64,000 bases of DNA from Rhodospirillales bacterium. Lineage in GTDB: Bacteria; Pseudomonadota; Alphaproteobacteria; Rhodospirillales; UBA2165. A program made the position numbers and the translations under genes. Of the stretch, positions 1-38,160 are shown one piece after another (within the stretch, counting starts at the first letter, position 1; each line of letters starts with the position of its first letter). The notes under the pieces were generated by a model. That model was not told the origin of the DNA. It worked only from the letters and a program-made list of their open reading frames with translations, and made no database searches. The stretch spans positions 2,370,971 to 2,434,970 of the forward strand of contig OZ243926.1 in the NCBI GenBank assembly GCA_965213765.1, written 5' to 3'.

Positions 1-3000
1 AGCCGGTCCTTGACCGCGGCGAGATAATCCTCGACTTCACGGCGGGTTTCGGTTGCTTCGTCGAGTTGGGAGAGCACCTTCCCGAGCGACCGGCGCGGGC
101 GGTCTTCAAGTGCAGGGTTTTCGGCCAATACCACCATGCGGGCACGGAGTTGTTCGTAGCCGTTCACATATATGGCATGGACACCGGCCCGTTCCGCCGC
201 CGCGAGATGATCGCTCCACTCCTGCCGCAATTCCGAATAGGCATCCCACGCGATATCCTCTTTCGTAGGCGTGGATGGTTCCTCCACGGACGGTGCCGAC
301 AGCACTGGCGGGGTTTGTACACCGGGCTCCCGACCGGCCGGCACGGCAACGGTTTCAAGCGGCGGTACGCCCTCGCGCGTCCCCTGGCGCCCCCCGGGCT
401 TAAGCCCTTGTTGTTCGGCTTCCTTCTTAATCCGAAGCACATGGCGCATGGTGGCCGCGCGCCGGTGGCGCCGCGCCCGGGTATGGAGGTTCTCGAATGC
501 GTCGAGGTCCCTGCGTCCGATACCGCCCTGCTCCGCCAGCAGGGATGCGAAGTCGTCCGGCCGGGCGCGGAAGGCTTCGGCCTGCTTCAGCAACACCGCA
601 TGGCGGGCGAGGGTCTCGCTGTAGGCTTCGCCGAGCGCCACCGCATCGCCTTCAATGCGGGTCCGTTCGCGGAGGAAGTCGTAGGCCGCCAGAACCTGCC
701 TGCGGCCGTCGGCGAACGAAGCGACCGCCTGGGTATGGCGCCAGCCGAAGGCGGTGCGCCGGACATCCCGCGCGATGCGGGCCAGCGCGTCGCCGGTCGC
801 CGCTGCGGGGTTATCACCCGCCCCGCCTCGGGATTGGCCGGGGGCTTCGCCCCGGACATCGCCCCGGGATTCACCAAGGGAACGGCTTTCGTCCTCCCGG
901 ACATTCTCCCGGATATCTTCCCATACGCCATCGGCCATGTAGTCGAGCGCCGCCTCCTTGGGCTGCGAGCGCGACCAGCGTTCGGCAAGGTATTCCCTGA
1001 TCTCGGTATCCGTCACCGCCGCTTCCCGGTCGTCATCGGCCCGCCGGTCGGCGATATCGAGGGCGAGCGGCGCCCGGTTGACATATATGTCCAGTGCCTC
1101 GCGATGGCGCGTAGCCGCCGGATAGATGGTTTCCCGCGAGGGCCGCGCATCGGCCAGCAGGAACGTCCGGTCCACGGTCAGCCCCTGGGCGGACGTGATG
1201 GTCAGCGCATAGCCGTGGTCGAGACGGATATTGCCGTACCAGTCGCGGATCTCGTCGTGGCGGAATGATACGGACCGCCCGTCCTCGGTGCGCGCCGTTA
1301 TCAGGACACCCGGCTCCGCGCCGGCCTCGGCTTTTTCAACCTTAAAGTCGTCGACCGTGACCACGGTGCCGTTGAACAGCTGCTTCTCCCAGTGCGTCGC
1401 GCCGATGCGCAGGCAATCGCCGCGCATGATCTCCAGCGGCGAGGTCGCCCGGTCGTCCTCCATGCCCCTGCTGACCATCACCGTCACCCCCAGGTCACCA
1501 AGCGAAGCTCGGTCAATTCGGGACGAAATGACCTTAACTGACCGCTCTCCACCCTGCCGGTCCGCGAACCGGCGTTCCCGCATCAGATGGGACAGCGCCC
1601 GCACCTCGGCCCGGGTGCGCGCCAGCACCACGGCGGACTTGCCGGGGTTGGCCCGCCGGTAGCGGTCCCAGTCGTCGACCAGGCGGGTCAGCGTGTTTTC
1701 CTCGTCATACCCCATATGGAACCGCCCGCGTAGATGATGGGCCTCAATGGCCGATGCCGCATCGCCGTCGCGCAGCGCCTCCGATGCCGCCACCTGCCAC
1801 GGCGTGAATACGGGCTTGTCCTCCATCGCCTCGTATTCGGCGACAATACGGGCGCGGTCCCGCTCCGCCATCGAACCCGCCAGGAGGAGTGCTTTCTCAG
1901 GCGTCTCGCCATGGACGTGAACCAGGATGTCCTCCAGGTCCGCCTTCTGGCGCCGTATGCGGTCCACCCGGACACTGCCGACGGCGTCACGGATCAGCCT
2001 CAGCCCCGGTCCCGCCCCGACGGGCTGCTGTTGCTGGGTATCGCCGGCGAAGACGATCTTCGCCCCATGACGTTCGGAGAGCTGGAGAATGTGATGCGCC
2101 TGGCGGGTCGACAGCATCCCCGCCTCGTCGACGATGATGGTGGTGTCTCCATCGATCTCGATCCCGCCCCGCGCGGCAAGGCGCAGCAGCTTGTCGACGC
2201 AGAACGGGCGCGCATCGACGTCGTTGCCGAGCGCCACCGCGGTGCGCCAGGCGACCGCCGTGGCGATGATGCTCCGCCCGTGTTCACGGTAGAGATCGGC
2301 GATGGGACGCAATGTCGTGGTCTTGCCCGAGCCCGCCGCCCCCTCGATGATGGCGACCCGGCCCGCCGATGGTGGGTCGGTCAGTCGCTTCGCTTTGTGA
2401 CCTGAGGTCAGTCGCTTCGCTTGGTGACCTGATGTAACATACCGGATCGCATTTATCTGTTCCGCGCTCAGCGGATAGCCCGCTTCCAGCAGCCCCGTCA
2501 CCTTTGCGTCGATAGCCCGGGCGGGCAGCGATTGTCCCGTGTCGTCGGCCATATCTTCAATGCCGCCCGGACGCACCGGGACGGCCATGCGCTCCGCCAT
2601 CTCCCTGACTTTCATCTCCATTTCCAGGTTGTGACGGGTTGAATACAGCCTTGTATGCGCCATGTCGGCCCGGCCCTCGGCCGAACGCGGCGGGCGGGTC
2701 AAGCGCACCACCTCCGGGCTCAGCAGGACACGCTCGATGCTGGTCGCCACCGCATCCCGGTTTAGCAGCCCGGCCGTGGCATTGCCCACCCGCTCGACGA
2801 TGTCGGGAAGACGGAATACCGCTTCCTCGCGGGTCAGGCGGTCGGGCAGGTCTTCCAGGACCTCCGTCAGCGCCCGGACCTGCTCTTGGGTCGTCTCTTC
2901 CGCCGTGCCCAGGAGCGAGGCGATCAACAATTCGCGCTCGACATACCCCTCCGCTTCGCGGCGCCAGCGGGCGTGGCGGATCTCCGGGTCGTTGTCCGGC

Positions 3001-3893
3001 GACTTGCCGGCCCGGGTGATCTTGTTGGCCGCCGCCGCACGCGGCGCGTTGCCCTGGACCGTGAACCCCATCTCCCGGGCCGCGTCGATAATCGCGGCGC
3101 GGCGCTTCGACCAGTGTCCCGTCAGGTCCCCGGGCATGCCGGCGATGCGGGTGAACCTCAGGTCACCAAGCGAAGCTCGGTCAATTCGGGACGAAATGAC
3201 CTTAACTGACCGCCCGTCCCTGCCATACTGCTCCATGAGGATGCCCAGGCGTTCCCGCAGGCTCCAGGCCAGCGCATTGCGGTAGACCGCCCCCGCCGCC
3301 TTCATCCAGCTGTAGGCCGGGTGCTGGTGCAATGCCCGGTACCTGCCGTCCCGGTGTGTCCGGGCGGCATTGAAGATCACGCAGTGGGTATGCAGCTGCG
3401 GGTCGTTGTCCCGGCTGGTTCCATGCTGGAACATGGCCGCCGATATGTCGGCGGGCAGCACCTCGATCTCGCCCGCCCTGCTGCGGATGCGGGTATAGGC
3501 GCAGTGACGCAGCACCGTCTCCTCGAGTGCTGTCCGTGCCGCATCGTTATGCGCCCGCTCGATCTCCGAACGCAGTTCCGGATCGGCGACGGCCCACAGG
3601 GCCGAGACGCTCTTGTCGGCGCTGAACGTCATGTCGAGACCCGCGGACCGCCGCTCGCTGCCGGCGTTCTGTGTGAGCTTGTCTCCGGTGTCCGGCGCGA
3701 AACCGTTATACAGCCGGTGGAAGTCCGCGCTGTCGACCCTGCTGCCGTCAACAAGACCGAACAGGCCCTTCGGATTGAACCAGACGCCGTCCGGTTCCTC
3801 TCCCGCCGTATAGTACTCGTTGGGATGCCGGAAGGAGCGCTGGTTCTCCAGGTAATAGGCCGCCGATGCGGCCTGGGCCAGGGTGGCTACCAT
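1..3893 (-). CDS. TrwC-family (MOBF) conjugative relaxase fused to a RecD-like helicase; the 3' end runs off the left window edge, which is why it is absent from the ORF track
   Basis: Own minus-strand translation from ATG 3893: MVATLAQAASAAYYLENQ... Relaxase motifs LDMTFSADKSVS and HGTSRDNDPQLHTHCVIFN; Walker A GAAGSGKTT near 2310-2340; IIVDEAGM Walker B. The frame stays open to position 1. Confidence 0.9.
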   Translation of the reverse strand, partial: MVATLAQAASAAYYLENQRSFRHPNEYYTAGEEPDGVWFNPKGLFGLVDGSRVDSADFHRLYNGFAPDTGDKLTQNAGSERRSAGLDMTFSADKSVSALWAVADPELRSEIERAHNDAARTALEETVLRHCAYTRIRSRAGEIEVLPADISAAMFQHGTSRDNDPQLHTHCVIFNAARTHRDGRYRALHQHPAYSWMKAAGAVYRNALAWSLRERLGILMEQYGRDGRSVKVISSRIDRASLGDLRFTRIAGMPGDLTGHWSKRRAAIIDAAREMGFTVQGNAPRAAAANKITRAGKSPDNDPEIRHARWRREAEGYVERELLIASLLGTAEETTQEQVRALTEVLEDLPDRLTREEAVFRLPDIVERVGNATAGLLNRDAVATSIERVLLSPEVVRLTRPPRSAEGRADMAHTRLYSTRHNLEMEMKVREMAERMAVPVRPGGIEDMADDTGQSLPARAIDAKVTGLLEAGYPLSAEQINAIRYVTSGHQAKRLTSGHKAKRLTDPPSAGRVAIIEGAAGSGKTTTLRPIADLYREHGRSIIATAVAWRTAVALGNDVDARPFCVDKLLRLAARGGIEIDGDTTIIVDEAGMLSTRQAHHILQLSERHGAKIVFAGDTQQQQPVGAGPGLRLIRDAVGSVRVDRIRRQKADLEDILVHVHGETPEKALLLAGSMAERDRARIVAEYEAMEDKPVFTPWQVAASEALRDGDAASAIEAHHLRGRFHMGYDEENTLTRLVDDWDRYRRANPGKSAVVLARTRAEVRALSHLMRERRFADRQGGERSVKVISSRIDRASLGDLGVTVMVSRGMEDDRATSPLEIMRGDCLRIGATHWEKQLFNGTVVTVDDFKVEKAEAGAEPGVLITARTEDGRSVSFRHDEIRDWYGNIRLDHGYALTITSAQGLTVDRTFLLADARPSRETIYPAATRHREALDIYVNRAPLALDIADRRADDDREAAVTDTEIREYLAERWSRSQPKEAALDYMADGVWEDIRENVREDESRSLGESRGDVRGEAPGQSRGGAGDNPAAATGDALARIARDVRRTAFGWRHTQAVASFADGRRQVLAAYDFLRERTRIEGDAVALGEAYSETLARHAVLLKQAEAFRARPDDFASLLAEQGGIGRRDLDAFENLHTRARRHRRAATMRHVLRIKKEAEQQGLKPGGRQGTREGVPPLETVAVPAGREPGVQTPPVLSAPSVEEPSTPTKEDIAWDAYSELRQEWSDHLAAAERAGVHAIYVNGYEQLRARMVVLAENPALEDRPRRSLGKVLSQLDEATETRREVEDYLAAVKDR
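1491..1545. repeat. Long form (54-55 nt) of a short palindromic repeat, inserted in frame in the relaxase gene
   Basis: caggtcaccaagcgaagctcggtcaattcgggacgaaatgaccttaactgaccgc is identical to 3159-3213. Nested ggtca/tgacc inverted motifs. Encodes RSVKVISSRIDRASLGDL on the coding strand. Confidence 0.9.
2379..2432. repeat. Two tandem 27-nt short-form copies of the same repeat, in the opposite orientation, in frame in the relaxase gene
   Basis: ggtcagtcgcttcgcttKgtgacctga x2. The reverse complement equals the two termini of the 54-nt element (tcaggtcaccaagcgaagc..ctgacc) with the central 30 nt missing. Encodes SGHQAKRLT SGHKAKRLT just upstream of the Walker A motif. Confidence 0.85.
3159..3213. 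repeat. Second long-form copy of the repeat, in frame in the relaxase domain
   Basis: 55/55 identity to 1491-1545. It sits between ..MEQYGRDG and RFTRIAGMPGDL.., a segment that reads as contiguous once the 18 codons are removed. Confidence 0.9.
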
Positions 3894-4347
3894 GCGACTG
3901 ACCGACCCGGGTCACATGGCCGGATTATGATTGTTTCGGCTCTCACAATTCGGGCCTTGGAAGTTCCTATATTTTACAGAGGCTTACCGAAACGGCTGTG
4001 CGGTATTCACAAACCGGGGCAAAGCTCATTACTTTCATCGAAGTCAGCGCACCGGGGTGCAGAGGTGTGCGCCAAGAAAGAAACTCCGTTCTCCTTTTGT
4101 TCGCATAGAGCATACGCATATAAGGGGAGACCGCAAGGGGTTTGGGGCCGCTTCCATGTTGGCGTGTTCGCTTGGCATTCGAAGCATCTCCTCGCAGTTG
4201 CACTCGGGGAAGGTTTGGAAGGCGGGCGGACCGTCGTGGCCGGCGTTATGGTTTGCCAAGACTCCTACGATTTGGAACGATGATCGGATAGCCGACGACC
4301 ACATCCGGGCCTGATCGCGGATACCGGAACCAGCGGGGAGACCGACG
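3894..4347. promoter_or_regulatory. Divergent intergenic region; putative oriT and promoters
   Basis: About 450 bp with visibly lower GC, between the divergently oriented relaxase gene and a small gene. Contains short inverted repeats (gacccgggtc near 3903; gcgcac..gtgcgc near 4049-4075). No nic site could be recognised. Confidence 0.35.
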
Positions 4348-11892: not shown

Positions 11893-12086
11893 TTGCGCAC
11901 GTTCAAGACCAAGCCTTTCGCGCGCTTCGCCAGTCGCGAGGGGATAACCTCCGGGGCGGCGAACTCGGGGCGCTGAAGGCGCTGGCGGACCGGTTGCTCG
12001 GACTGGACTGGCCGGGCCTGGAAGCGATGCTGGCGAACGGAACGATTAGCGAGGTGAATTGCGATGCCCAGACAATACGGGAGTGA
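11893..12086 (+). pseudogene. Decayed RelE/ParE-superfamily toxin (internal deletion plus frameshift)
   Basis: The frame starting TTG 11893 gives LRTFKTKPFARFASREGIT.. then a stop. A second frame gives ..ELGALKALADRLLGLDWPGLEAMLANGTISEV. About 50 central residues of the family are absent. Confidence 0.6.
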
Positions 12087-12381
12087 CGTGCTGGCGTCGG
12101 TGCATGAGACCGCGCTCGGAATGACGGAGGCGGGCGTCATGTCGAAACGGACGATGAAGGCGTTCGACGAGATGTGTCTGACACCGGTCGAGGACATGGC
12201 ACCGGAGCGGATTCGCGAGATCCGGCTGCGCGAGAACGCGAGCCAGGCGGTGTTCGCGCGCTACCTCAACGTGACGAAGGGTCTGGTTAGTCAATGGGAG
12301 CGTGGCGAGAAGCACCCGCGAGGCGCCTCCTTGAAGCTCCTGACGCTGGTGGCGAAGAACGGCCTCGGGGCGGTCGCCTGA
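12064..12381 (+). CDS. HTH antitoxin (MqsA/YiaG-like DNA-binding protein)
   Basis: ..MSKRTMKAFDEMCLTPVEDMAPERIREIRLRENASQAVFARYLNVTKGLVSQWERGEKHPRGASLKLL.. Overlaps the end of the toxin remnant. Confidence 0.8.
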   Translation: MPRQYGSDVLASVHETALGMTEAGVMSKRTMKAFDEMCLTPVEDMAPERIREIRLRENASQAVFARYLNVTKGLVSQWERGEKHPRGASLKLLTLVAKNGLGAVA

Positions 12382-12496
12382 CGGACATCGGCCGGCGGGT
12401 CGCCGTGTTGCGACAGTGTTGATACGCGACATGAAAAACCCTGCACACCGAAAATAATACAATAATTACAGCATATTATGGTCTAGAGAATCTCCT

Positions 12497-13015
12497 TCAT
12501 GAATGTTCAAGAAGCATCCGCCGAAATGGCTCAAGAGCACCGCGAAATCCGACGACGTCCTCATCGCGTCCCGCCTGCGCCTCCTCAAGGCTGCACCCAA
12601 GACGGGCCTCGCGGGTCCGGCGGTAGTGTTCCCGGTCATCCGGGTGTACATGGTCCAATACGTCCCTGGTAATCAACGGCAGGAGTACCGGGTAGAGTGC
12701 GGCCGGCACCCAGGCATTGAGGAAACTCGCAAGCGCCCAACTTCCGCGGTCGGGAAACAACAAGCCTTCGGACGGCCAGACCCGCTCGAGATAATTGGCG
12801 ATTTCCCAGCTGTCGCACACGACGGAATCGCCATGTTTCAACACCGGCGCCAACCGGTAATCGGTCCAACCCTCCAGAGCGGATTTGTCCAGAAACGTCG
12901 TACCGACGACCTCGTAGTCCAGCTTCTTATGCGCCAGGGCCAGTTTCGTGCGCCAGACGTAGGGGCTGAACCTGAAGTTGTCCCGGCCGAGAAAATCGCA
13001 GAGCGTGATTTGCAA
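12497..13015 (-). pseudogene. Glutathione S-transferase family gene, apparently 3'-truncated
   Basis: A GST N-domain plus part of the C-domain. It ends at ..LEPFRRMLLEHS, where family members normally continue for about 50 more residues. An AT-rich junction follows at 12382-12496. Confidence 0.6.
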
Positions 13016-13043
13016 GATGATGCTTCCGGTTCCGGGGTCCCGC

Positions 13044-14039
13044 TTACGCGAGAACCCTCCTTGTGGAAACCGCCATTCCCGGCCGCCGGTCTTCCTGGGG
13101 AGATTTGCCGAACTCGGTTTTGTAGGTACGGGAGAAATGCTCCAGGCTTCCGAAACCGCTCGCCACCGCCACTTCGATTAACGGCAGTTCGGATTGCAGC
13201 AGGAGGCGCCTGGCGTGGAGCAATCTGATATGACGGTAGTAGCGGACTGCGGATGTCTTTACGTGCTCCTTGAACATCCTTTCGAGTTGACGCTGAGAGA
13301 TACCCACCTGGGCGGCCAACCTGGATATTGGAATTGGGTCCTCTATGTTGCCTTCCATCAGATCCACAACCCGAAGAACGCGGGGGTTTGTAATTCCGAG
13401 ACGGAATCGGGTCGACGTTCTTTGGTTATTCTCCGCATTCCGGATTTCGCCCATGATGAACTGATCGGAAACCTCCGCGGCCACGTTGTGACCGAAATGG
13501 ACACTAATCAGATGAAGCACCAAATCCATTGCGGCCGTTCCACCCGCGCAGGTAAATCGATCACGGTCAATTTCGAACAGATTCCGGGTCGCCTCAACCC
13601 GCGGATAGGTCTCGATGAAACTGTCAAGAAACTGCCAATGGATGGTCGCCCGATATCCATCCAACAGGCCGGCTTCCGCGAGGAAGATGGAGCCCGCCCC
13701 CAGTGCGCCAAGATGGGCACCCTTGCTGTCCAGCATCCGCAGCCATGATTTTACGGGCGCCCTTACCGACAGGACCGGTTCGAACCCAACGCAGCAAATC
13801 GCATTGGGGAAATAGCCCGCCTCCTTCAGGGAACAGTCGGCAACGATGGACATTCCGTTGATGGCCTCCACCGGCTGGCCGTCCCGGGAAATGAAGGTCC
13901 ACTCAAAAAGCCTTTCGTCGCAGATCCGATTGGCCATTCGAAGGGGGTCGATGGCGTTTATGAACGGAACGATCGAAAACTTCTGAGCCAGATAGATCCC
14001 GATTTTGATGGGCCCGGTGGTGTCGGTCACTTTCAACAT
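13044..14039 (-). CDS. GlxA-family transcriptional regulator (DJ-1/PfpI-like domain plus AraC HTH)
   Basis: ..GAGSIFLAEAGLLDG..ATIHW.. N-terminal domain; C-terminal ISQRQLERMFK..VAVASGFGSLEHFSRTYK. Confidence 0.9.
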   Translation of the reverse strand: MLKVTDTTGPIKIGIYLAQKFSIVPFINAIDPLRMANRICDERLFEWTFISRDGQPVEAINGMSIVADCSLKEAGYFPNAICCVGFEPVLSVRAPVKSWLRMLDSKGAHLGALGAGSIFLAEAGLLDGYRATIHWQFLDSFIETYPRVEATRNLFEIDRDRFTCAGGTAAMDLVLHLISVHFGHNVAAEVSDQFIMGEIRNAENNQRTSTRFRLGITNPRVLRVVDLMEGNIEDPIPISRLAAQVGISQRQLERMFKEHVKTSAVRYYRHIRLLHARRLLLQSELPLIEVAVASGFGSLEHFSRTYKTEFGKSPQEDRRPGMAVSTRRVLA

Positions 14040-14101
14040 AAACGCATTTGTCCGAGAACGGTCGCTGGTTTACTGGTCGATCTTATCCCCGAACTTCTCC
14101 G

Positions 14102-15412
14102 CTAGCGCGTATCCATCGTCGACGGAAGCCAGGTTGCGATTTCCGGAAAAATCGTCAGAAGGACGACGCCGACGATCATAAGGCAAAAGAACGGGATGGT
14201 TGCCCGCGCAACCTTGAAGATGCTTATGCCCGTCAGCCCTTGGATAACGAACAAATTGAACCCGAGCGGCGGCGTAATTTGCGCCATTTCGACCACAATG
14301 ATTACGAAGATGCCGAACCAAATTAGGTCGAAGCCGGCCGACGTCACCAGTGGAAGCACAACGGTGGTGGTCAACACGATCATGGATATTCCCTCGATAA
14401 AGCAGCCCAGCACGATATAGAGCAGGCACAAAGCCGCCATGAGAGCAAAGGGGTGCAGGTTGAAGGCTCCGATCCAACTCGCGAGCGCCGCCGGCAGGCC
14501 CGAAAACGCCAAAGACGTCGTGAGGAATGCGGCGCCCGTGAGGATAAAGAAAATCATGCAGGTCAGCCTCGTCGCGCCGAGCAGACTTTCCGAAAACGTC
14601 TTCCAGTTAAGCGTACCCGTCCAGGCGGATAACAGGAGAGCGCCAATGACGCCGCCGGCGGCAGCCTCCGTCGCAGTGGCAATTCCGAGATAGATCGAAC
14701 CGATCACGGCGGCGATCAGCAGGACCACGGGGATCAATCCTTTCGAACGCCGCAATTTTTCCCGAAAACTGATTTTCAAATTATCCAAGGGGACGCCGCC
14801 GGTCTTAAAAACCGCCGACAAACCGATATAGCCCATGAACAATGCGATCAGCATGAGACCGGGAAACACCCCGGCCAGAAACAGCCTGACAATCGAGACG
14901 TCGGCGGCCACGCCGTAAACAATCATGATGATCGACGGCGGTATCAACAAACCCAACGTTCCCGACCCGGCCAAACTGCCGATGCTCAAATTTTGGTCGT
15001 AGCCCTGTTGCTTGAGCTCGGGCAGTGACATGCGGCCGATCGTGGCGACGGTCGCAGCCGAAGAGCCGCAGACCGCCGCAAAGATTCCACACCCGACCAC
15101 ATTCACATGCATCAGCCTTCCCGGCAGCCATCGCACCCAAGGGGCCACGCCTCGAAACAGGGTTTCCGAGAGCCGGGCCCGAAACAGGATCTCTCCCATC
15201 CATATGAAGAGGGGCAGGGCGGCCAACGTCCAGGAAGCCATGGTCCCCCACACCGACGTCGCCAGCGATTTCTCGACCGGCACCGTCCCGAAGAACGTCA
15301 GGCCGATCCAGCCGACCCCTAAAAGGGAAAGGGCGATCCACAGCCCGGATCCCAGAAACAGTGCGAGGAAAATGACCAGGGTCACTGCTATTTGAGTGAG
15401 TTCGGGGGTCAT
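14102..15412 (-). CDS. TRAP transporter large permease (DctM family)
   Basis: 436-aa polytopic membrane protein with typical DctM sequence (SSAATVATIG, GTLGLLIPPS). Confidence 0.95.
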   Translation of the reverse strand: MTPELTQIAVTLVIFLALFLGSGLWIALSLLGVGWIGLTFFGTVPVEKSLATSVWGTMASWTLAALPLFIWMGEILFRARLSETLFRGVAPWVRWLPGRLMHVNVVGCGIFAAVCGSSAATVATIGRMSLPELKQQGYDQNLSIGSLAGSGTLGLLIPPSIIMIVYGVAADVSIVRLFLAGVFPGLMLIALFMGYIGLSAVFKTGGVPLDNLKISFREKLRRSKGLIPVVLLIAAVIGSIYLGIATATEAAAGGVIGALLLSAWTGTLNWKTFSESLLGATRLTCMIFFILTGAAFLTTSLAFSGLPAALASWIGAFNLHPFALMAALCLLYIVLGCFIEGISMIVLTTTVVLPLVTSAGFDLIWFGIFVIIVVEMAQITPPLGFNLFVIQGLTGISIFKVARATIPFFCLMIVGVVLLTIFPEIATWLPSTMDTR

Positions 15413-15424
15413 GATCTTGCCCTG

Positions 15425-15955
15425 CTAATCCAGGTTTTCCACCGAGCCGCCCAGAAATTCGCTCTCGACCATATAGGGCGGCGTTTGTCCCCGAAGAGAG
15501 GCGATCACATCGTCCAACACGGCGATGGTCAACAGGAGTGAACCGAGACCAATGGAGATTTGAGGAATCCAGATGGGAATCACGATCAGGCCCTGGGATA
15601 GTTCCTCGAACCGCAAGGAGTCCCAAGCCATATCGAAGGCCGAGAAAGTCAGGAATCCGATGAAATAGAGCGCGACCACCATGACGCCCAGCTCCATGAG
15701 CCGGCGCGCCATTCCATCGAAAAGGTGGATTACGACCGTTACACGAATGTGGCTGCCGTGCCGGTAAGTATAGGCCAGAGGGAGGAAGCCGGTCGCGACA
15801 ACGCTCCAGGCGGTCAGATCATCGGCCCCTTTTACCTGAATGCCCAGCTCCCGGCCGATCACCTGGGCACAGATGAGCAACCCGATAATGACGATAAAAA
15901 AGGCGGCTAGGACCCCCCCGGCGAAATACAAGAAATCCAGGGTTCTTCTGACCAT
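15425..15955 (-). CDS. TRAP transporter small permease (DctQ family)
   Basis: 176-aa four-TM protein directly upstream of the DctM gene. Confidence 0.9.
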   Translation of the reverse strand: MVRRTLDFLYFAGGVLAAFFIVIIGLLICAQVIGRELGIQVKGADDLTAWSVVATGFLPLAYTYRHGSHIRVTVVIHLFDGMARRLMELGVMVVALYFIGFLTFSAFDMAWDSLRFEELSQGLIVIPIWIPQISIGLGSLLLTIAVLDDVIASLRGQTPPYMVESEFLGGSVENLD

Positions 15956-16020
15956 GCCGCCCTCTGGTTATGGCGCCCGGCCGCGGCGCAGGGAGTCCCG
16001 CCGCGGCCGGGTCAACCTTT

Positions 16021-17001
16021 CTACTTCCCTAGCGCATTATAGGCGGCGATGAATTTCTTGCCACGGTCTCCTGCTTTGGCCAGCCACTCATCGACCATTT
16101 GGCTGCCGATTTTCTCGAGTTGAGCCAGGAATGCCGGATTCGGCGGCTCAACCTTCATGCCGTTCTTCGCCAAATTGGCGGTCAGACCCGCCTGAACATT
16201 AGCGCTCATGATCCAGCCACGGGCTTCCGCCTTGGCGGCCGCGCGCGTCACCGCACGTTTCGTGTTGGCATCGAGCCCATCGAAAGCACGGGCGTTCATG
16301 ATGACCATGTTCTTATTGTTCATGGCATTTACGTCGTAGTAGTGGGACGTGAAATCCCAGGCCTTCGTATAGTTGCCGGTCGCCGCCGACGTGATCATCG
16401 CGCTGACGACACCGGTGGCAAATGCCTGCGGGACTTCAGCGGACTGAACCGTGGTCGGAACGGCGCCCATCAGTTCGGCGAAGCGGGCGGTCAATGCGTT
16501 GTAGGCCCGGAACTTTACGCCCTTGTAGTCGCTGGTCGACGTGATTGGTTTCTTGGCGTACAGACCCTGGCCCGGCCACGGCACCGCAAACAGCGCCATG
16601 AGGCCTTGGGATTTCAGTTTGGCTTCGATATGCGGCAAGGTCAGTTCATACACTTCCCAGGCCGTCGGCTGTCCCTTGGAAAGAAACGGTATGCCGTCGA
16701 CCTCGAAGAACGGATCTTCCTTCCCGTAAGCGGAGAGCAGAATCTCCCCCAACTGGACCTGACTCGTCTGCACACCGCGCTTGATCTCCGGCATCTTGAG
16801 AAGCGAGGCGCCGGTATGGAGCGTGATGTTCAGCTTGCCACCCGAATCACGGGCGACATCCTTTGCAAAACGGGCGATATTCTGGGTGTGGAAGTTATTG
16901 TCCTTGTAGGCGGTCGCCATATTCCATTTGGTTTGAGCGTCCGCGGCAACCGTGCTGAGCGCAACTACGGCGGCAGCGGACATAGAGAGAATTTTCTTCA
17001 C
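16021..17001 (-). CDS. TRAP substrate-binding protein (DctP family)
   Basis: GTG 17001 with a GGGAGG RBS; signal peptide VKKILSMSAAAVVALSTVAADA; DctP-like body. Confidence 0.9.
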   Translation of the reverse strand: MKKILSMSAAAVVALSTVAADAQTKWNMATAYKDNNFHTQNIARFAKDVARDSGGKLNITLHTGASLLKMPEIKRGVQTSQVQLGEILLSAYGKEDPFFEVDGIPFLSKGQPTAWEVYELTLPHIEAKLKSQGLMALFAVPWPGQGLYAKKPITSTSDYKGVKFRAYNALTARFAELMGAVPTTVQSAEVPQAFATGVVSAMITSAATGNYTKAWDFTSHYYDVNAMNNKNMVIMNARAFDGLDANTKRAVTRAAAKAEARGWIMSANVQAGLTANLAKNGMKVEPPNPAFLAQLEKIGSQMVDEWLAKAGDRGKKFIAAYNALGK

Positions 17002-17262
17002 TTGAGCCTCCCGGGTGAAGGATTGAAGTTCACAAATTGAGGAACGGCCTCCGTCGCAGTTCCAAGATTCCCCAACTTGATGGGCACCAATGTCGCAATT
17101 CATGCCTGCTATCGAGTTCAAAGTATCCGAGCCTGCCCTTCGGGAGACATGACACAATTCGCCATTAATTGGACGATAATCGACATCGAACAGGCGGCTG
17201 CGTCAAGTGGAATTGGCGGCTTGTGTTGCCGCGGCGCAGACCGGGCTTCGTAGCCTTCAGCG

Positions 17263-17518: not shown

Positions 17519-17600
17519 GGCGTTGTCAGAGCAACCAGCATCAACTTGAGCAATCTGAAGGCACTGTGGTTCTAGCCGGCAAGTTGCCGCCATTCGGCTA
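17519..17600 (-). mobile_element. Terminal fragment of a second IS6-type element (IR plus transposase C-terminus, inverted)
   Basis: ggcgttgtcagagcaac resembles the IS6 IR at 18447-18462. The reverse complement of 17557-17600 encodes ..AALAEWRQLAG-stop. Confidence 0.55.
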
Positions 17601-17656
17601 ACGCTGCGGAGCGATGGGTCAGAATGCGCCAACTCTCTTAACAAACCTGGACCACT

Positions 17657-17754: not shown

Positions 17755-18114
17755 ATGCCGGCGAGGGCACGCATCAGGATTGTTTCGGCCTGCCTTTTCG
17801 CGGGCCTGATTGCCGGCAGCCCGGCATGGGCCGGCTGCATATCGCAGTCGCTCGGCGCCATCACCGTCCACAACTGCAACGGCAAGCTCACCACCTCGCA
17901 GACCGTGGGCGCTACCACGGTGCATAGTTTCGACGGCAGGATCGGCCTGTCGCAGAGGATCGGGGATACCGCCGTGCACAGCATCGACGGTAAGACCGGC
18001 ACGTCACAGACCGTTGGGACCACCACGGTGCATAATTTCGACGGCAAGGCCGGCTTCTCGCAGACCATCGGCGGCATCACCGTCCACAGCGGCCCGCTGT
18101 TCGACGGCCGCTGA
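17755..18114 (+). CDS. Small lipoprotein with five ~18-aa tandem repeats
   Basis: GGAGGG RBS; signal peptide with lipobox AGSPAWAG-C. Repeats xSQxxGxxTVHxxDGKxG: CISQSLGAITVHNCNGKL, TSQTVGATTVHSFDGRIG, LSQRIGDTAVHSIDGKTG, TSQTVGTTTVHNFDGKAG, FSQTIGGITVHSG. Confidence 0.7.
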   Translation: MPARARIRIVSACLFAGLIAGSPAWAGCISQSLGAITVHNCNGKLTTSQTVGATTVHSFDGRIGLSQRIGDTAVHSIDGKTGTSQTVGTTTVHNFDGKAGFSQTIGGITVHSGPLFDGR

Positions 18115-18116
18115 CC

Positions 18117-18462
18117 GTGGTTTCGCCGAGCCGGCTTCTATCCTGCCGCGCGGCCCTCAAAGAATTGAGTATGACGAGGCTTCAGGAGAGTGGCGGCCGG
18201 GCAAACAGCCGGGCGGAGAACTCGCATCAGCCGTTTCGACGGCGACAAGGAGCCATGGCGCGGTTCCGGGATATCAAGACTCTACGGAAATTCGCCGCGG
18301 TGCACGCCTCGATCCGCAACCACTTCAATCCAGAACGCCATCTCATTCGCCGGGACATGTTCAAGACCCGCTGCGCTGCCGCTTTGGCCGAACGGCGGCA
18401 ACCCGCCGGCTAAATTCACAATCCGCACCGGTTAACCCGCATCCGCGCCATTTGCTCTGACA
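18117..18462 (+). mobile_element. IS6-family 3' fragment (transposase C-terminus plus right IR)
   Basis: ..RAALKEL..NSRAENSHQPFRRRQGAMARFRDIKTLRKFAAVHASIRNHFNPERHL..AALAERRQPAG; IR ttgctctgacaatgcc at 18447-18462. Confidence 0.85.
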
Positions 18463-18481
18463 ATGCCGCAGACTGCGCTAC

Positions 18482-25425: not shown

Positions 25426-25940
25426 AAAATCCGGCGTCGTCCGAGCAATTGGCGCGGATGCGGGTTAACCGGTGCGGATTGTGAATTTAGCCGGCGGATT
25501 GCCGCCGTTCGGCCAAAGCGGCAGCGCGGCGGGTCTTGAACATGTCCCGGCGAATGAGATGGCGTTCTGGATTGAAGTGGTTGTCGATCGAGGCGTGCAC
25601 CGCGGCGAATTTCCGTAGAGTCTTGATATCCCGGAACCGCGCCATGGCTCCTTGTCGCCGTCGAAACGGCTGATGCGAGTTCTCCGCCCGGTTGTTTGCC
25701 CGGCCGCAAACACCGGCCCGAAGCGGTTCCACCGGAAACGAATTGTCTCGCGCCAGATATCGATACCGCGTTCGAACGGCAGATCTTCAAACCTACCCCG
25801 GCGACAACGGATACCGGACATACATCATCACTGTGCGGCGAATGATCCCGGGCGAACTATTGAAATAGCGGAAGGGGTGTTTCATCACCGGAGGCTAAGT
25901 AGCCCGCCCGCCAACCTCAACCCGATTTAGTCCGACAATG
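25426..25940 (-). mobile_element. Internally deleted IS6-family element with both IRs
   Basis: IRs ggcgtcgtccgagcaa (25428-) and agtccgacaatgcc (-25940). N-terminal MKHPFRYFNSSP.. and ..FERGIDIWRETIRFRWNRFGPVF are fused out of frame to ..NNRAENSHQPFRRRQGAMARF.. About 300 bp is near-identical, inverted, to 18160-18462. Confidence 0.85.
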
Positions 25941-29122: not shown

Positions 29123-29494
29123 GGCGATGAGTCCGTCCGGCCCGCGGCGGGGCCGGTTACGCCGATGGATATGCCCGCCTGAGTTTGCGCGAACCGTTGC
29201 GGACGGGCCGCATCCGGCCGCCAACCCGGTTCCTCCGCCAGCCTCGAACCCTCCTGCCATTGCAGGCCGGCAGTCCGATCAGCCGCCTCGACGACATTCT
29301 CCAAATGCCTTTCGGGCAGGCGCTGGCCCGCACCCCCGACGCTTCATCCTTACTGCCCGGCGGTAATGGGTTTGCGCTATATGCCGCCGCGCGGCGGAAG
29401 CGGAGCGCCTCGGCTCCGCGGATGGCGCGGCCTCCTGTCGGCAGCCTTCAGGGCCTGTCATGCCCTTGTCCCTGCGGCTCCTAAAGGTGGGCAG

Positions 29495-31345
29495 GCCAAC
29501 ATCACGTTTACCGACGCCACTATCACCATCAATGACGATGACGCGGCGCCGAGCGGCATCACGCTGAGCGTGGACACCAACGGTTCGACCTCGGGCACGC
29601 CGAGCACGGTGGCGGAGGACGCCGGGGCCACGGTGGTCACGGTAACGGCGACGGTGAACGGCACCACGCGTTACGTGGACGCCAAGACCGTGGCGGTGAG
29701 CGTGGATGACGGCACCGCGGAATCGCCCGCCGATTATGCGGCGGTGAGCGGCTTCAACATCACGATTGCCGCGGGCGCGGCCAGCCAGAGCGGCAGTTTC
29801 ACCGTGACGCCGGTGGACGACGACCTCGACGAGGCCAACGAGACGATCGACGTCACCGGCACGCTGACCGACATCACGATCACCGCCGCGACGGTGACGC
29901 TGACCGACACCGACGACCCGGTGAGCTTCTCGATCGCCGATGCCGAGGCCACCGAGGGCGGCAAGGTGGAGTTCACGGTGAGCCGCGAAGGGGCCGGGGA
30001 CAACGTGGCGTCGGTGAAGGTGACCACGGCCACGGACAGCGGCGATGGGGCCGATGCCGCCGATGCGGACGACTACACCGCCATCGCCACGGCGCAGACA
30101 TTGAACTTTGCCAAGGGCGTCGCCAGTCAGACGGTGGAGGTGCAGACCACGCAGGACGACCTGTTCGAGCCGGACGAGACGTTCAAGGCGGTCCTGAGCG
30201 CCCCGGCGCTTGGGGAGAACGACCCCGGCACCGGGGTGAGCATTGAGTCGGGCAAGGGCACGGCCACGGGGACAATCAAGAACGACGACACCGAGCCGTC
30301 GTTTGCGGTGGCGGACGCCAGCGCGTCGGAGGGCGATGCCATCACCTTCACGGTGACCCGCTCCGGGGCGATGGACAACGCGGTGTCGGTGAAGTGGAAC
30401 ACCAAGGCGGCGACCGGGGCGGGCGCGGCTTCGATCAGCGATTACACCGCTGTGACGGCGCCGGCGACGCTGACCTTCGCCAAGGGCGTGAGCAGCCAGA
30501 CCTTCACGGTCGCCACCACGGAGGACACGCTGGATGAGGGCAACGAGACCTTCCTGGTGGAGCTGACCGGGGCGGTGGGCGGCACGATTGCCACGGCCGA
30601 GGCCACCGGCACCATCAATGACGATGACGCGGCGCCGAGCGGCATCACGCTGAGCGTGGACACGAACGGTTCGACCGCGGGCACGCCGAGCACGGTGGCG
30701 GAGGACGCCGGGGCCACGGTGGTCACGGTGACGGCGACGGTGAACGGCACGACCCGCTACGTGGATGCCAAGACCGTGGTGGTGAGCGTGGATGACGGCA
30801 CCGCGGAATCGCCCGCCGATTATGCGGCGGTGAGCGGCTTCAACATCACGATTGCCGCGGGCGCGGCCAGCCAGAGCGGCAGTTTCACCGTGACGCCGGT
30901 GGACGACGACCTCGACGAGGCCAACGAGACGATCGACGTCACCGGCACGCTGACGCCCACCGATGACGACCTGCACGAGGGCAGCGAGACGATTGACGTT
31001 ACCGGTACCTCGAACGCGCTCACCATCACCAAGGCTTCGATCACCCTTGAAGACGACGACGCTCAACCGTCGTTTGCGGTGGCCGACGCGAGCGCGTCGG
31101 AGGGCGACGCGATCACCTTTACGGTGACCCGTAGCGGGGCGATGGACAACGCGGTGTCGGTGAAGTGGAACACCAAGGCGGCCACCGGGGCGGGCGCGGC
31201 TTCGACCACCGACTACACCGCGATGCCCACGGCGACGAAGCTGGATTTCGCCAAGGGCGTGGGCAGCCAGACCTTCGCGGTCGCCACCACCGAGGACACG
31301 CTGAACGAGGCCAACGAGACCTTCCTGATAGAGCTGACCGATCCC
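29495..31345 (+). pseudogene. Calx-beta repeat adhesin-like gene fragment (both ends missing) with a 1086-bp internal tandem duplication
   Basis: Repeated ..ADYAAVSG..ITIAAGAASQSGSFTVTPVDDDLDEANETIDV.. and ..DYTA....L.FAKGV.SQTF.V.TTEDTL.E.NETF.. units. No signal peptide. Blocks 29528-29868 and 30614-30954 are near-identical. Confidence 0.8.
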
Positions 31346-31485
31346 GTCGGCATCACGGTGAGCACGTTGCGGCCGGCCAGGAGCGCCTCGATGGCCGCTT
31401 CCTGGCCCGGCCGGAACCCGTCGAACCCAAATACATCCCTCAGCACCTGGCGTGCGGCGGCTGTCGGTTCCTCCAACGTGCGCAT
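31342..31485 (-). pseudogene. RecQ helicase N-terminal stub (about 48 aa)
   Basis: MRTLEEPTAAARQVLRDVFGFDGFRPGQEAAIEALLAGRNVLTVMPTG, then the homology stops where the Calx-beta fragment abuts. Confidence 0.6.
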
Positions 31486-31528
31486 CAGTGCCGAAACCGG
31501 GAGAGGTCAACCAGGGATCAGGCGGAGA

Positions 31529-31813
31529 TCACGCGCCCGCCGCCCTCTTCAACGCGGCGGACGGCCGGAATTTGAGAACCTTGGAGGCCTTGATCCGGAT
31601 CGCTTCGCCCGTCCGCGGATTGCGGCCCTTGCGCGCCGGACGCCTGGTAATGGTGAAGGTGCCGAAGTTGCCGATGGTGTAGCGGCCTTCCTTCTTCGAC
31701 TTCTTCAGCCCGGCCTCGATCTCGCCCAGGACAAGGTCGACCGTGCGCTTGGCCTCCGCCTTGCTCATGTTGCCCTTCGCGGCGATGTTCTCGATGAATG
31801 CGGCTCTGCTCAT
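31529..31813 (-). CDS. HU/IHF-family nucleoid-associated DNA-binding protein
   Basis: ..FGTFTITRRPARKGRNPRTGEAIRIKASKVLKFRPSAALK. Confidence 0.9.
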   Translation of the reverse strand: MSRAAFIENIAAKGNMSKAEAKRTVDLVLGEIEAGLKKSKKEGRYTIGNFGTFTITRRPARKGRNPRTGEAIRIKASKVLKFRPSAALKRAAGA

Positions 31814-32033
31814 GATGTGTGGCCTCTTTGTTTTCCGAACCGAAACTGTCTCACAAGGCCGCTACATATAGTGGCCTCATGCCTGTGTGTATACTATAAA
31901 CGGCTCCAGGTTGCATATGATCGCGGCTCCCTGTTCGAACCGCGCGGCTGGGCGGTAATGCAGGAAGCAGCCACGGCGGCGTTTCTCCAAGGAAGCCGCG
32001 CACCGGATTCGCGTGCTTGAAGAACTATAGCGG

Positions 32034-38090: not shown

Positions 38091-38160
38091 TGAGTAATCT
38101 GAAGGCACAGTGGTTCTAGCCGTCGGGTTGCCGCCGTTCGGCCAAAGCGGCAGCACGGCA
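38091..38160 (-). mobile_element. Right half of the split IS6-type end (transposase C-terminal codons), then truncated
   Basis: tgagtaatctgaaggcacagtggttctagccgtcgggttgccgccgttcggccaaagcggcagc. The reverse complement encodes ..AAALAERRQPDG-stop. Colinear with 17547-17600. Confidence 0.6.

Follow-up and report, generated by a model that had tools for sequence, protein, structure and literature searches.

A very small hairpin-forming repeat inserted in the relaxase gene and in transposase genes of Rhodospirillales mobile elements

A 64-kb stretch of genomic DNA from a Rhodospirillales bacterium (hereafter the window, to whose positions our coordinates refer unless a locus is named) carries at its left edge a predicted gene for a MobF/TrwC-type relaxase-helicase, inside which one short repetitive element occurs several times. 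This element is a tiny dispersed repeat. Its copies are real insertions, those found in working genes have passed a filter of selection, and its habitat is the DNA of mobile elements. As to the way it spreads, we favour, with slightly better than even confidence, a self-copying family of tiny non-coding hairpin repeats that lives on mobile elements and would be moved as a single-stranded hairpin intermediate.

The relaxase gene lies on the minus strand at positions 1-3893. The window holds its 5' 1297 codons and the gene continues past the left window edge; the window sequence is 100% identical to a database protein of 1470 amino acids (aa; P0001) encoded on a 4.56-Mb contig. Pfam recognises TrwC, AAA_30 and related domains in this protein, which also matches the structures of TraI (5N8O) and TrwC (1OMH) and to which plasmid MobF relaxases are ~30% identical; by its sequence the product is classed as a relaxase-helicase of the MobF/TrwC type. 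The open reading frame (ORF) opens at 3893 and is uninterrupted across all copies of the element, which are translated as RSVKVISSRIDRASLGDL (twice) and as SGHQAKRLT SGHKAKRLT.

Two long forms of the element, each consisting of a 54-nucleotide (nt) core followed by GC, lie on the plus strand, antisense to the gene, at 1490-1545 (aa 784-801) and at 3158-3213 (aa 228-245, after the ..YGRDG turn of the relaxase domain). They are identical to each other and part of a 63-nt direct repeat (1483-1545 and 3151-3213, 95% identity), and the first-pass annotation of the window had rightly recorded 1491-1545 and 3159-3213 as identical 55-nt stretches spaced by 1668 nt. Equally correct was its description of a third site, 2379-2432, with two tandem 27-nt short units in the opposite orientation, i.e. 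sense to the gene: 2379-2405 and 2406-2432 are 96% identical, and the pair encodes SGHQAKRLT and SGHKAKRLT (aa 488-505) in a predicted loop just before the Walker A motif. That annotation counted three in-frame insertions, all of which are indeed free of stop codons in the ORF, but there is a fourth copy, the truncated short-unit remnant GCGACTGACCGA at 3894-3905 (plus strand), which abuts the relaxase start codon. When the 18-nt arm CAGGTCACCAAGCGAAGC was allowed up to three mismatches, it was found at four real sites and one chance-like site in the window, against a mean of 0.06 matches in shuffled sequence (none of 100 shuffles reached five). No further copy was found beyond the four sites within the 64 kb, where there was also no Rfam match at gathering thresholds and no tRNA gene.

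The core of the short unit comprises 27 nt, 5'-TCAGGTCAC(C/A)AAGCG(A/G)AGCGACTGACC-3', and when the GA that follows is included, 29 nt fold into a hairpin whose 7-bp stem, TC(A)GGTCA/TGACCGA, has a bulge. In the long form (54 or 56 nt) the GAC of the short unit is replaced by a 30-nt segment, TCGGTCAATTCGG(G/A)ACGAAATGACCTTAAC, which sits at a fixed point in the short-unit loop and is a hairpin by itself (DNA folding energy -6.5 kcal/mol, z -3.4). The short unit had been described earlier as the two termini of the long form with the central 30 nt removed; the termini are shared, but GAC stands in place of those 30 nt. Similarly, of the palindrome with nested ggtca/tgacc motifs the 5-bp GGTCA/TGACC stem is present (7 bp with a bulge if the flanking TC...GA is counted), but overall the element is weakly palindromic and its short form folds poorly. 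The long form is predicted to adopt a three-way structure as DNA (-8.9 to -10.3 kcal/mol, z -2.0 to -2.5). The loop of the element includes the mini-hairpin GCGAAGC, which is unusually stable as DNA. The element begins with TCAGG.. and closes with ..CTGACCGA, and neither end has a GTAG or CGTC tag; the sole CGTC is found on the reverse strand, within the inner hairpin that only the long form has. Independent mobility of this 30-nt inner hairpin was considered and rejected, as no solitary copy was found. Stem bases are nearly invariant and loop positions variable. One long copy, located upstream of a YAcAr-domain gene in locus L046 (8462-8515), has the stem GGGCA/TGCCC instead of GGTCA/TGACC, which is the sole compensatory double change among ~70 copies.

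That the copies were inserted is evident from a comparison of the 120 best homologues of the relaxase protein. Peptides derived from the element occur only in the 21 closest of them (83-100% identity), while the homologues of ~78% identity hold no copy, nor does the DNA of the outgroup locus L053. Among relaxases that are 83-92% identical, alignments of protein and DNA place the element, in both orientations, at no fewer than 11 different positions of the ORF, and beyond these in the 5' untranslated region (5'UTR) and in the region just downstream of the gene. Presence or absence at each site varies among close relatives, and the P0011 ORF is without any copy. For example, L047, L051, L052 and the outgroup lack any insert at the 3158-3213 site, where L046 and L048 have a short form, the site at 1490-1545 is either empty or occupied by a short form in homologues, and the site preceding Walker A, filled in most members of the clade, contains between zero and six tandem units with head-to-tail periods of 27 and 36 nt. 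The copy at the start codon measures the full 27 nt in L001, L048 and L049 (9976-10002), is truncated in the window and three other loci, and is absent from L047 and the outgroup L053; where present, it replaces 8 nt of the ancestral leader, and the idea that this 5'UTR copy is the ancestral source of the family was rejected on these grounds. Because the sites vary among relatives of 83-92% identity and none is occupied in homologues of ~78%, the alignments identify the relaxase copies as lineage-specific, polymorphic insertions. The earlier proposal of true, lineage-specific insertion is thereby borne out by the homologue alignment; the same peptides at the same positions are not seen in the more distant ~78%-identity group.

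Three relaxase variants (P0001, P0012 and P0015) have different sets of elements and probably share one genome, because one and the same contig of 4,557,672 bp is given as the longest for each. The element-bearing relaxases are under purifying selection, with ratios of non-synonymous to synonymous substitution rates (dN/dS) of 0.06-0.12 for the relaxase domain and 0.17-0.26 for the helicase, dS being ~0.17. The residues 'GDAD' at empty S784 sites were considered as a remnant of the element, an idea that was rejected since they are the ancestral state in the consensus of the ~78%-identity group. The head-to-tail arrays of variable copy number are those of a coding minisatellite, which leaves dispersed copies in both orientations unexplained.

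The conserved entity is the DNA sequence and not a peptide, because copies occur in both orientations and in three frames, and because the same nucleotide variants, C/A at position 10 and A/G at position 16, recur in every frame. Of its six frames, the short form has three without stop codons (SGHQAKRLT, RSPSEATDR and RSVASLGDL); for the long form there are two such frames, RSPSEARSIRDEMTLTDR and RSVKVISSRIDRASLGDL. The frames occupied in relaxases are exactly the stop-free ones. Two sites in the SGHQAKRLT frame hold short units only, as is expected because the long form has a stop in that frame. All surviving relaxase copies add a multiple of three nucleotides (27, 30, 33, 36, 54 or 60 nt). 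The first-pass annotation had noted insertion always in frame and unit lengths in multiples of 27, neither of which is a property of the element: in IS630 and IS3 transposase genes (IS, insertion sequence) the inserts measure 29 or 56 nt and break the frame. The in-frame habit is therefore survivorship after selection and not intrinsic to the element.

Outside relaxases, the element was sought with a degenerate pattern in 185,579 species-representative genomes. True matches were confined to three metagenome-assembled genomes, each named 'Rhodospirillales bacterium', the remaining matches having chance-like gap lengths and sequences, and the number of exact copies per representative genome is small, short of the high copy number of repetitive extragenic palindromic (REP) sequences. 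In the three genomes the element occupies two fixed positions of IS630-family transposase genes, and no relaxase was seen on their contigs within the 8 kb examined. A scan of JGI metagenomes yielded seven contigs, all from the whole-genome shotgun project LXNI01, which is the metagenome of the sponge Sarcotragus foetidus (Horn et al. 2016; PMC5099237), sequencing of which was completed in 2013. On these sponge contigs some copies are linked to a relaxase (directly 5' of its start, at its C-terminus, and in a backbone spacer of an integrative and conjugative element (ICE) beside the relaxase operon), others to transposases (an IS21 IstA-like ORF, an IS630 gene and an IS3-family gene). Altogether, 12 of 12 loci from the unbiased scans fall in genes of mobile elements or in ICE backbone. 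An exact 53-nt scan of the species-representative genomes, a set that lacks the source genome, gave no match; neither did plasmids, whether by megablast of the relaxase region or blastn of the element, nor the viral contigs scanned. A search with the concatenated element-derived peptides returned 170 word-sharing candidates of which none scored, and is uninformative as to in-frame carriers in other families. Across data sets, the carriers comprise several long-read assemblies of the ENA, MEGAHIT-assembled genomes and the sponge metagenome.

Within eight relaxase-centred loci, ~41 units were counted in 34 kb of relaxase ORF as against ~7 in 188 kb of flanks, a density of ~1.2 per kb in the ORFs and of ~0.04 per kb in flanking DNA. 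None of the seven flank copies is farther than ~1.5 kb from the relaxase gene, and three abut its start codon; counted as independent sites, the figures are ~12 for the ORF and 5 for the flanks. Every copy found lies in mobile-element DNA, overwhelmingly in this one relaxase gene, and the element is not a genome-wide repeat of the type found in Rickettsia.

The junctions in transposase genes, judged against empty sister copies or a conserved motif, are clean. At IS630 position 1 (between ATC and ATG), IS630 position 2 (between AAY and CCN) and the IS3 site (between DRT and DGRK), the insert is exactly TCAGG...CTGACCGA, and the target is left unchanged and without duplication. Comparison of filled with empty sites likewise reveals no target duplication at the relaxase sites S5, 10965 and 10636. 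Three relaxase sites have clean insertions of 33 nt, i.e. 29 nt plus CYYA, and at a fourth the insertion is a long form of 60 nt that bears this 4-nt extension too. Without exception the left end is sharp. On the right, the 27-nt core is continued by G in 15 of 18 independent sites, and next come A and CCC; because the core usually continues in this manner the units appear to end variably. On the left flank, (C/A)-A-Y-C directly precedes the element in 9 of the 18 sites, a pattern picked post hoc, for which nominal P values are inflated. In locus L010 (5074-5127) an IS630 copy is devoid of the segment between two element sites and retains a single long-form element, a deletion indicative of recombination between copies of the element. 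A MITE (miniature inverted-repeat transposable element) of IS630 type with a TA target was considered and rejected, since neither TA nor duplication occurs at any junction. Rescue of the 29-nt IS630 inserts by translational bypass or programmed frameshifting was rejected as well; the junction sequences have no matching take-off and landing codons, nor a stop codon after the upstream junction.

We propose that the element inserts new copies of itself elsewhere with no target duplication, and that its hosts are mobile elements of one sponge-associated Rhodospirillales lineage, chiefly the MobF relaxase gene of an ICE family, but also IS630, IS21 and IS3 transposase genes. New copies would arise via single-stranded, hairpin-folded DNA with cleavage and joining at defined ends, as in 'peel-and-paste' elements of the HUH type, a putative enzyme being provided in trans, and a variable choice of the right end may give rise to units of 27, 29, 33 and 36 nt. 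Selection for a working relaxase would then filter the insertions, so that the survivors are translated as inserts of 9-20 residues in presumed surface loops. Copies also amplify in tandem and recombine among themselves. Enzyme-mediated transfer of a single strand is suggested by the clean, identical ends at three unrelated transposase sites, the lack of target duplication, the hairpin and the biased left flank.

Several observations weigh against such a mechanism. Neither a Y1 HUH transposase nor a RAYT (the nuclease associated with REPs) is among the Pfam calls of the neighbouring genes, covering nine loci and ten window ORFs. The hairpin of the short form is weak (-2.3 to -3.6 kcal/mol as DNA, z -0.5 to -1.3), and covariation in the stem is minimal, with one compensatory change as compared to three disruptive ones. 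The 30-nt inner hairpin, by whose nested insertion the long form may have originated, was never found alone. The right end is fuzzy (27, 29, 33 or 36 nt), and some insertions replace target sequence, namely ~16 nt at S784 and 8 nt at the 5'UTR, in addition to a difference of 27 vs 30 nt between lineages at S1; these replacements and the fuzzy right end are no worse explained by microhomology-mediated repair or by template switching than by transposition. Nor does the proposed model account for so extreme a concentration in a single gene. The relaxase loci were moreover retrieved through intact proteins, a procedure by which frame-broken relaxase copies would be missed and for which the flanks serve as unbiased control, and the placement of the insertions in surface loops or turns is plausible but read from sequence alignment only. 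In these alignments the site at aa 228 corresponds to ..YGKDG followed by N in TrwC (residues 218/219 of 1OMH), and that at aa 488 falls between a helix and the first strand preceding Walker A in the helicase domain of TraI; an AlphaFold2 model of residues 1-897, with a mean pLDDT (predicted local distance difference test score) of 39, is too poor for mapping loops.

The most serious alternative, which we regard as possible though a good deal less probable, dispenses with dedicated machinery. According to it, the copies are short templated insertions from nearby donors, made during break repair or by microhomology-mediated template switching and spread further by tandem slippage and by gene conversion among relaxase and IS paralogues, the hairpin being a favoured stalling point and donor. 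Such an origin is suggested by the fuzzy right end, by the small deletions or replacements of target at S784, the 5'UTR and S1 (one S784 junction has a 6-nt microhomology, GACCGG), and by the clustering of copies within ~1.5 kb of one gene. Several left flanks (CATC), furthermore, equal the spacer that precedes units in the 36-nt tandem arrays, and both long copies of the window carry the rarer GGGACG variant, as intragenic copying predicts. The same gene also holds a second polymorphic in-frame insert, which is an inverted copy, 33 nt long and 97% complementary, of a segment of the gene itself. It lies at 2553-2585, ~760 nt downstream of its source at 3345-3377, which encodes ..IFNAARTHRDG.. 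directly after the helix-turn-helix of the HUH motif; the insert is translated as AVPVRPGGIED, is variable among homologues and is replaced by two hairpin units in L046. This is the signature of local strand switching, and it suggests that the relaxase gene acquires segments of ~33 nt from at least two donors. Templated insertion would however need a chance microhomology at each of the three transposase sites, where copies in unrelated IS families share identical clean ends (TCAGG...CCGA) and an intact target; the left end is sharp throughout, and the transposase copies are on contigs without a relaxase within 8 kb, so that copying cannot have been purely local.

A rather doubtful but specific alternative to both assigns the movement to the relaxase itself, which as an HUH endonuclease cleaves single strands 3' of a hairpin and can also join them. 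The element would be a miniature mimic of its nic site, and the enzyme would act preferentially in cis on its own transcribed gene and the adjacent spacer with the origin of transfer (oriT), a relation comparable to that of REP and RAYT. No HUH enzyme other than the relaxase recurs at these loci, and the copies are concentrated in and around its gene, also in the spacer close to oriT; the element folds into a hairpin, and its insertion duplicates no target. A candidate oriT nic region is the hairpin GCACC-CC-GGTGC followed by GCTGACTTCGATG at 4036-4062 (minus strand) in the spacer upstream of the gene, which all eight relaxase loci and the outgroup share and which we presume, by analogy, to correspond to the nic region of R388. 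It reads GGTGC-G-CTGACTTC up to the presumed nic before GATG, and the clean right end of the element, ..GCGAAGC-G-ACTGACCGA, lies 8-9 nt 3' of the GCGAAGC mini-hairpin, a distance that we take to be the hairpin-to-nic spacing of R388. The resemblance, on the other hand, amounts to a gapped match of ~8 nt and has no statistical weight, the copies occur in both orientations, those in IS630, IS21 and IS3 would demand action in trans, and the Rhodospirillales assembled genomes that carry the element have no relaxase in the retrieved loci. The idea is a lead only.

We consider it very unlikely that the repeats are kept for a use, be it as regulator sites (GGTCA-N14-TGACC), as RNA structures tuning the expression of the relaxase or as peptide linkers. 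The near-invariant stem with its variable loop, the copy abutting the start codon in most loci and the occupation of the pre-Walker A site in most members of the clade would agree with a function. By contrast, one DNA sequence yields three peptides with no conservation at the peptide level, presence is variable at every site and the P0011 ORF has none, the IS630 and IS3 transposase frames are simply broken, and no Rfam family matches. An artefact of sequencing or assembly, which the origin of several carriers from long-read metagenome assemblies might suggest, is refuted by the presence of copies in other genes and in independent projects and technologies (MEGAHIT short-read genomes and the Illumina-era Sarcotragus foetidus metagenome of 2013) and by their divergence and covariation with host lineages.

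The flanks of the relaxase loci L001, L046-L049 and L052 are islands dense in defence and toxin genes, comprising restriction-modification systems, GmrSD, AIPR/Z1, TIR/SEFIR, a reverse transcriptase with PRTase domain, HipA, PIN and Fic. Sponge symbiont genomes are rich in defence (PMC5099237), and the islands at the relaxase loci fit this picture. In the window, no ORF at 4.3-11.9 kb has a Pfam match, and at ~12000-17200 the G+C content drops from 0.66-0.71 to ~0.58 near 12 kb, followed by chromosomal genes (an AraC/DJ-1 regulator and the TRAP transporter DctM/DctP); the end of the conjugative element is probably located near 12 kb. Positions 17837-18093 comprise five diverged tandem copies of a 54-nt (18-codon) repeat inside the ORF 17810-18460, whose sequence is unrelated to the element. 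A 276-nt inverted repeat (18193-18468 and 25432-25707, 97% complementary) brackets ~7 kb, and shorter related copies occur elsewhere in the window, also at 17547-17607 and 38091-38151; it may be a composite mobile unit or belong to a MITE-like family of intergenic repeats. Finally, direct repeats (300 nt with 86-96% identity, and shorter units) at 29511-31352 lie in an 884-aa ORF (29366-32020), a gene for a repeat-rich protein.

How repeats too small to encode anything can move is an old question, raised by REPs, by the small dispersed repeats of cyanobacteria and by the palindromic elements of Rickettsia. What sets the present element apart is its size, its near-exclusive residence in the genes of mobile elements and its very high load in a single functional gene. 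As material for this question the system is unusually clear, with defined sites both filled and empty, transposase genes that are dead and have clean junctions, and a gene that can be assayed by conjugation with a visible selection filter, while a candidate for the moving enzyme is encoded by the colonised gene itself. Should the relaxase prove to be the mover, the element would be a relaxase-borne counterpart of REP/RAYT and a parasite specialised on mobile elements. Relaxases evidently tolerate insertions of 9-20 residues at 11 positions or more, which is useful for the engineering of relaxase fusions, and a repeat that lives on other mobile elements bears on the decay and taming of conjugative elements and insertion sequences in symbiont genomes.

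Among known systems, the first-pass annotation had been reminded of the Rickettsia palindromic elements (RPE), reportedly the subject of Ogata et al. 2000. The likeness is real in that both are non-coding repeats found in frame inside ORFs and translated as a tolerated extra peptide, and both are lineage-specific and polymorphic between relatives. RPEs, however, measure ~100-150 bp, form the families RPE-1 to RPE-10 in the genus Rickettsia and are scattered over many housekeeping and RNA genes, whereas the element described here measures 27-60 nt, occurs in Rhodospirillales and a sponge metagenome, was found in mobile-element genes only and breaks the frame where selection is absent. Membership in an RPE family is not supported, on the grounds of size and taxon, RPE-family sequences not having been compared. 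Closer in size are the cyanobacterial small dispersed repeats (SDR) SDR4-6, which Elhai et al. 2008 are said to have described in 'Very small mobile repeated elements'. They share with our element the 21-27-nt size class, the non-coding nature, a predicted hairpin, composite as well as tandem copies, and presence/absence polymorphism, but they belong to another phylum, have other sequences and are abundant genome-wide, while the copy number per genome is apparently low here and tied to relaxase and IS transposase genes. SDRs nest within one another, and the long form looks like a 30-nt hairpin placed within a short one, although this 30-nt hairpin is never seen on its own.

REPs and REPINs are imperfect palindromes of 20-40 nt thought to be moved as single-stranded hairpins by the HUH nuclease RAYT; they are extragenic and reach hundreds of copies (PMC3116915, PMC3333891, PMC3733652), with a GTAG or CGTC tag at one end (PMC3733652). 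The 29-nt unit with its 5-7-bp stem and the clustering of copies at or near the gene of a presumed enzyme are REP-like, but nearly all copies are intragenic and few per genome, the end tag is lacking and no RAYT was seen nearby. Derivatives of IS200/IS605 resemble the element in the absence of target duplication, in hairpins near the ends and perhaps in insertion 3' of a short, loosely conserved motif (here (C/A)AYC), but exceed 100 nt, have separate left and right hairpins and are served by a cognate TnpA, in contrast to the single 29-nt hairpin, with no TnpA found, of the present case. MITEs such as Correia elements are likewise non-autonomous, bear short terminal inverted repeats (here TC(A)GGTCA / TGACCGA, of 5-7 bp only) and alter the products of the genes in or next to which they insert; they differ in duplicating their target and in deriving from an identifiable IS, whereas here there is no duplication and 27-29 nt is below the MITE size range. 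The first-pass annotation knew of no described equivalent, and our literature searches found no description of the element either. What emerges is a very small non-autonomous repeat that behaves like an RPE, has the size and hairpin of SDRs and REPs, lacks defining features of RPEs, REPs and MITEs, and apparently represents an unusually small, hitherto undescribed mobile repeat.

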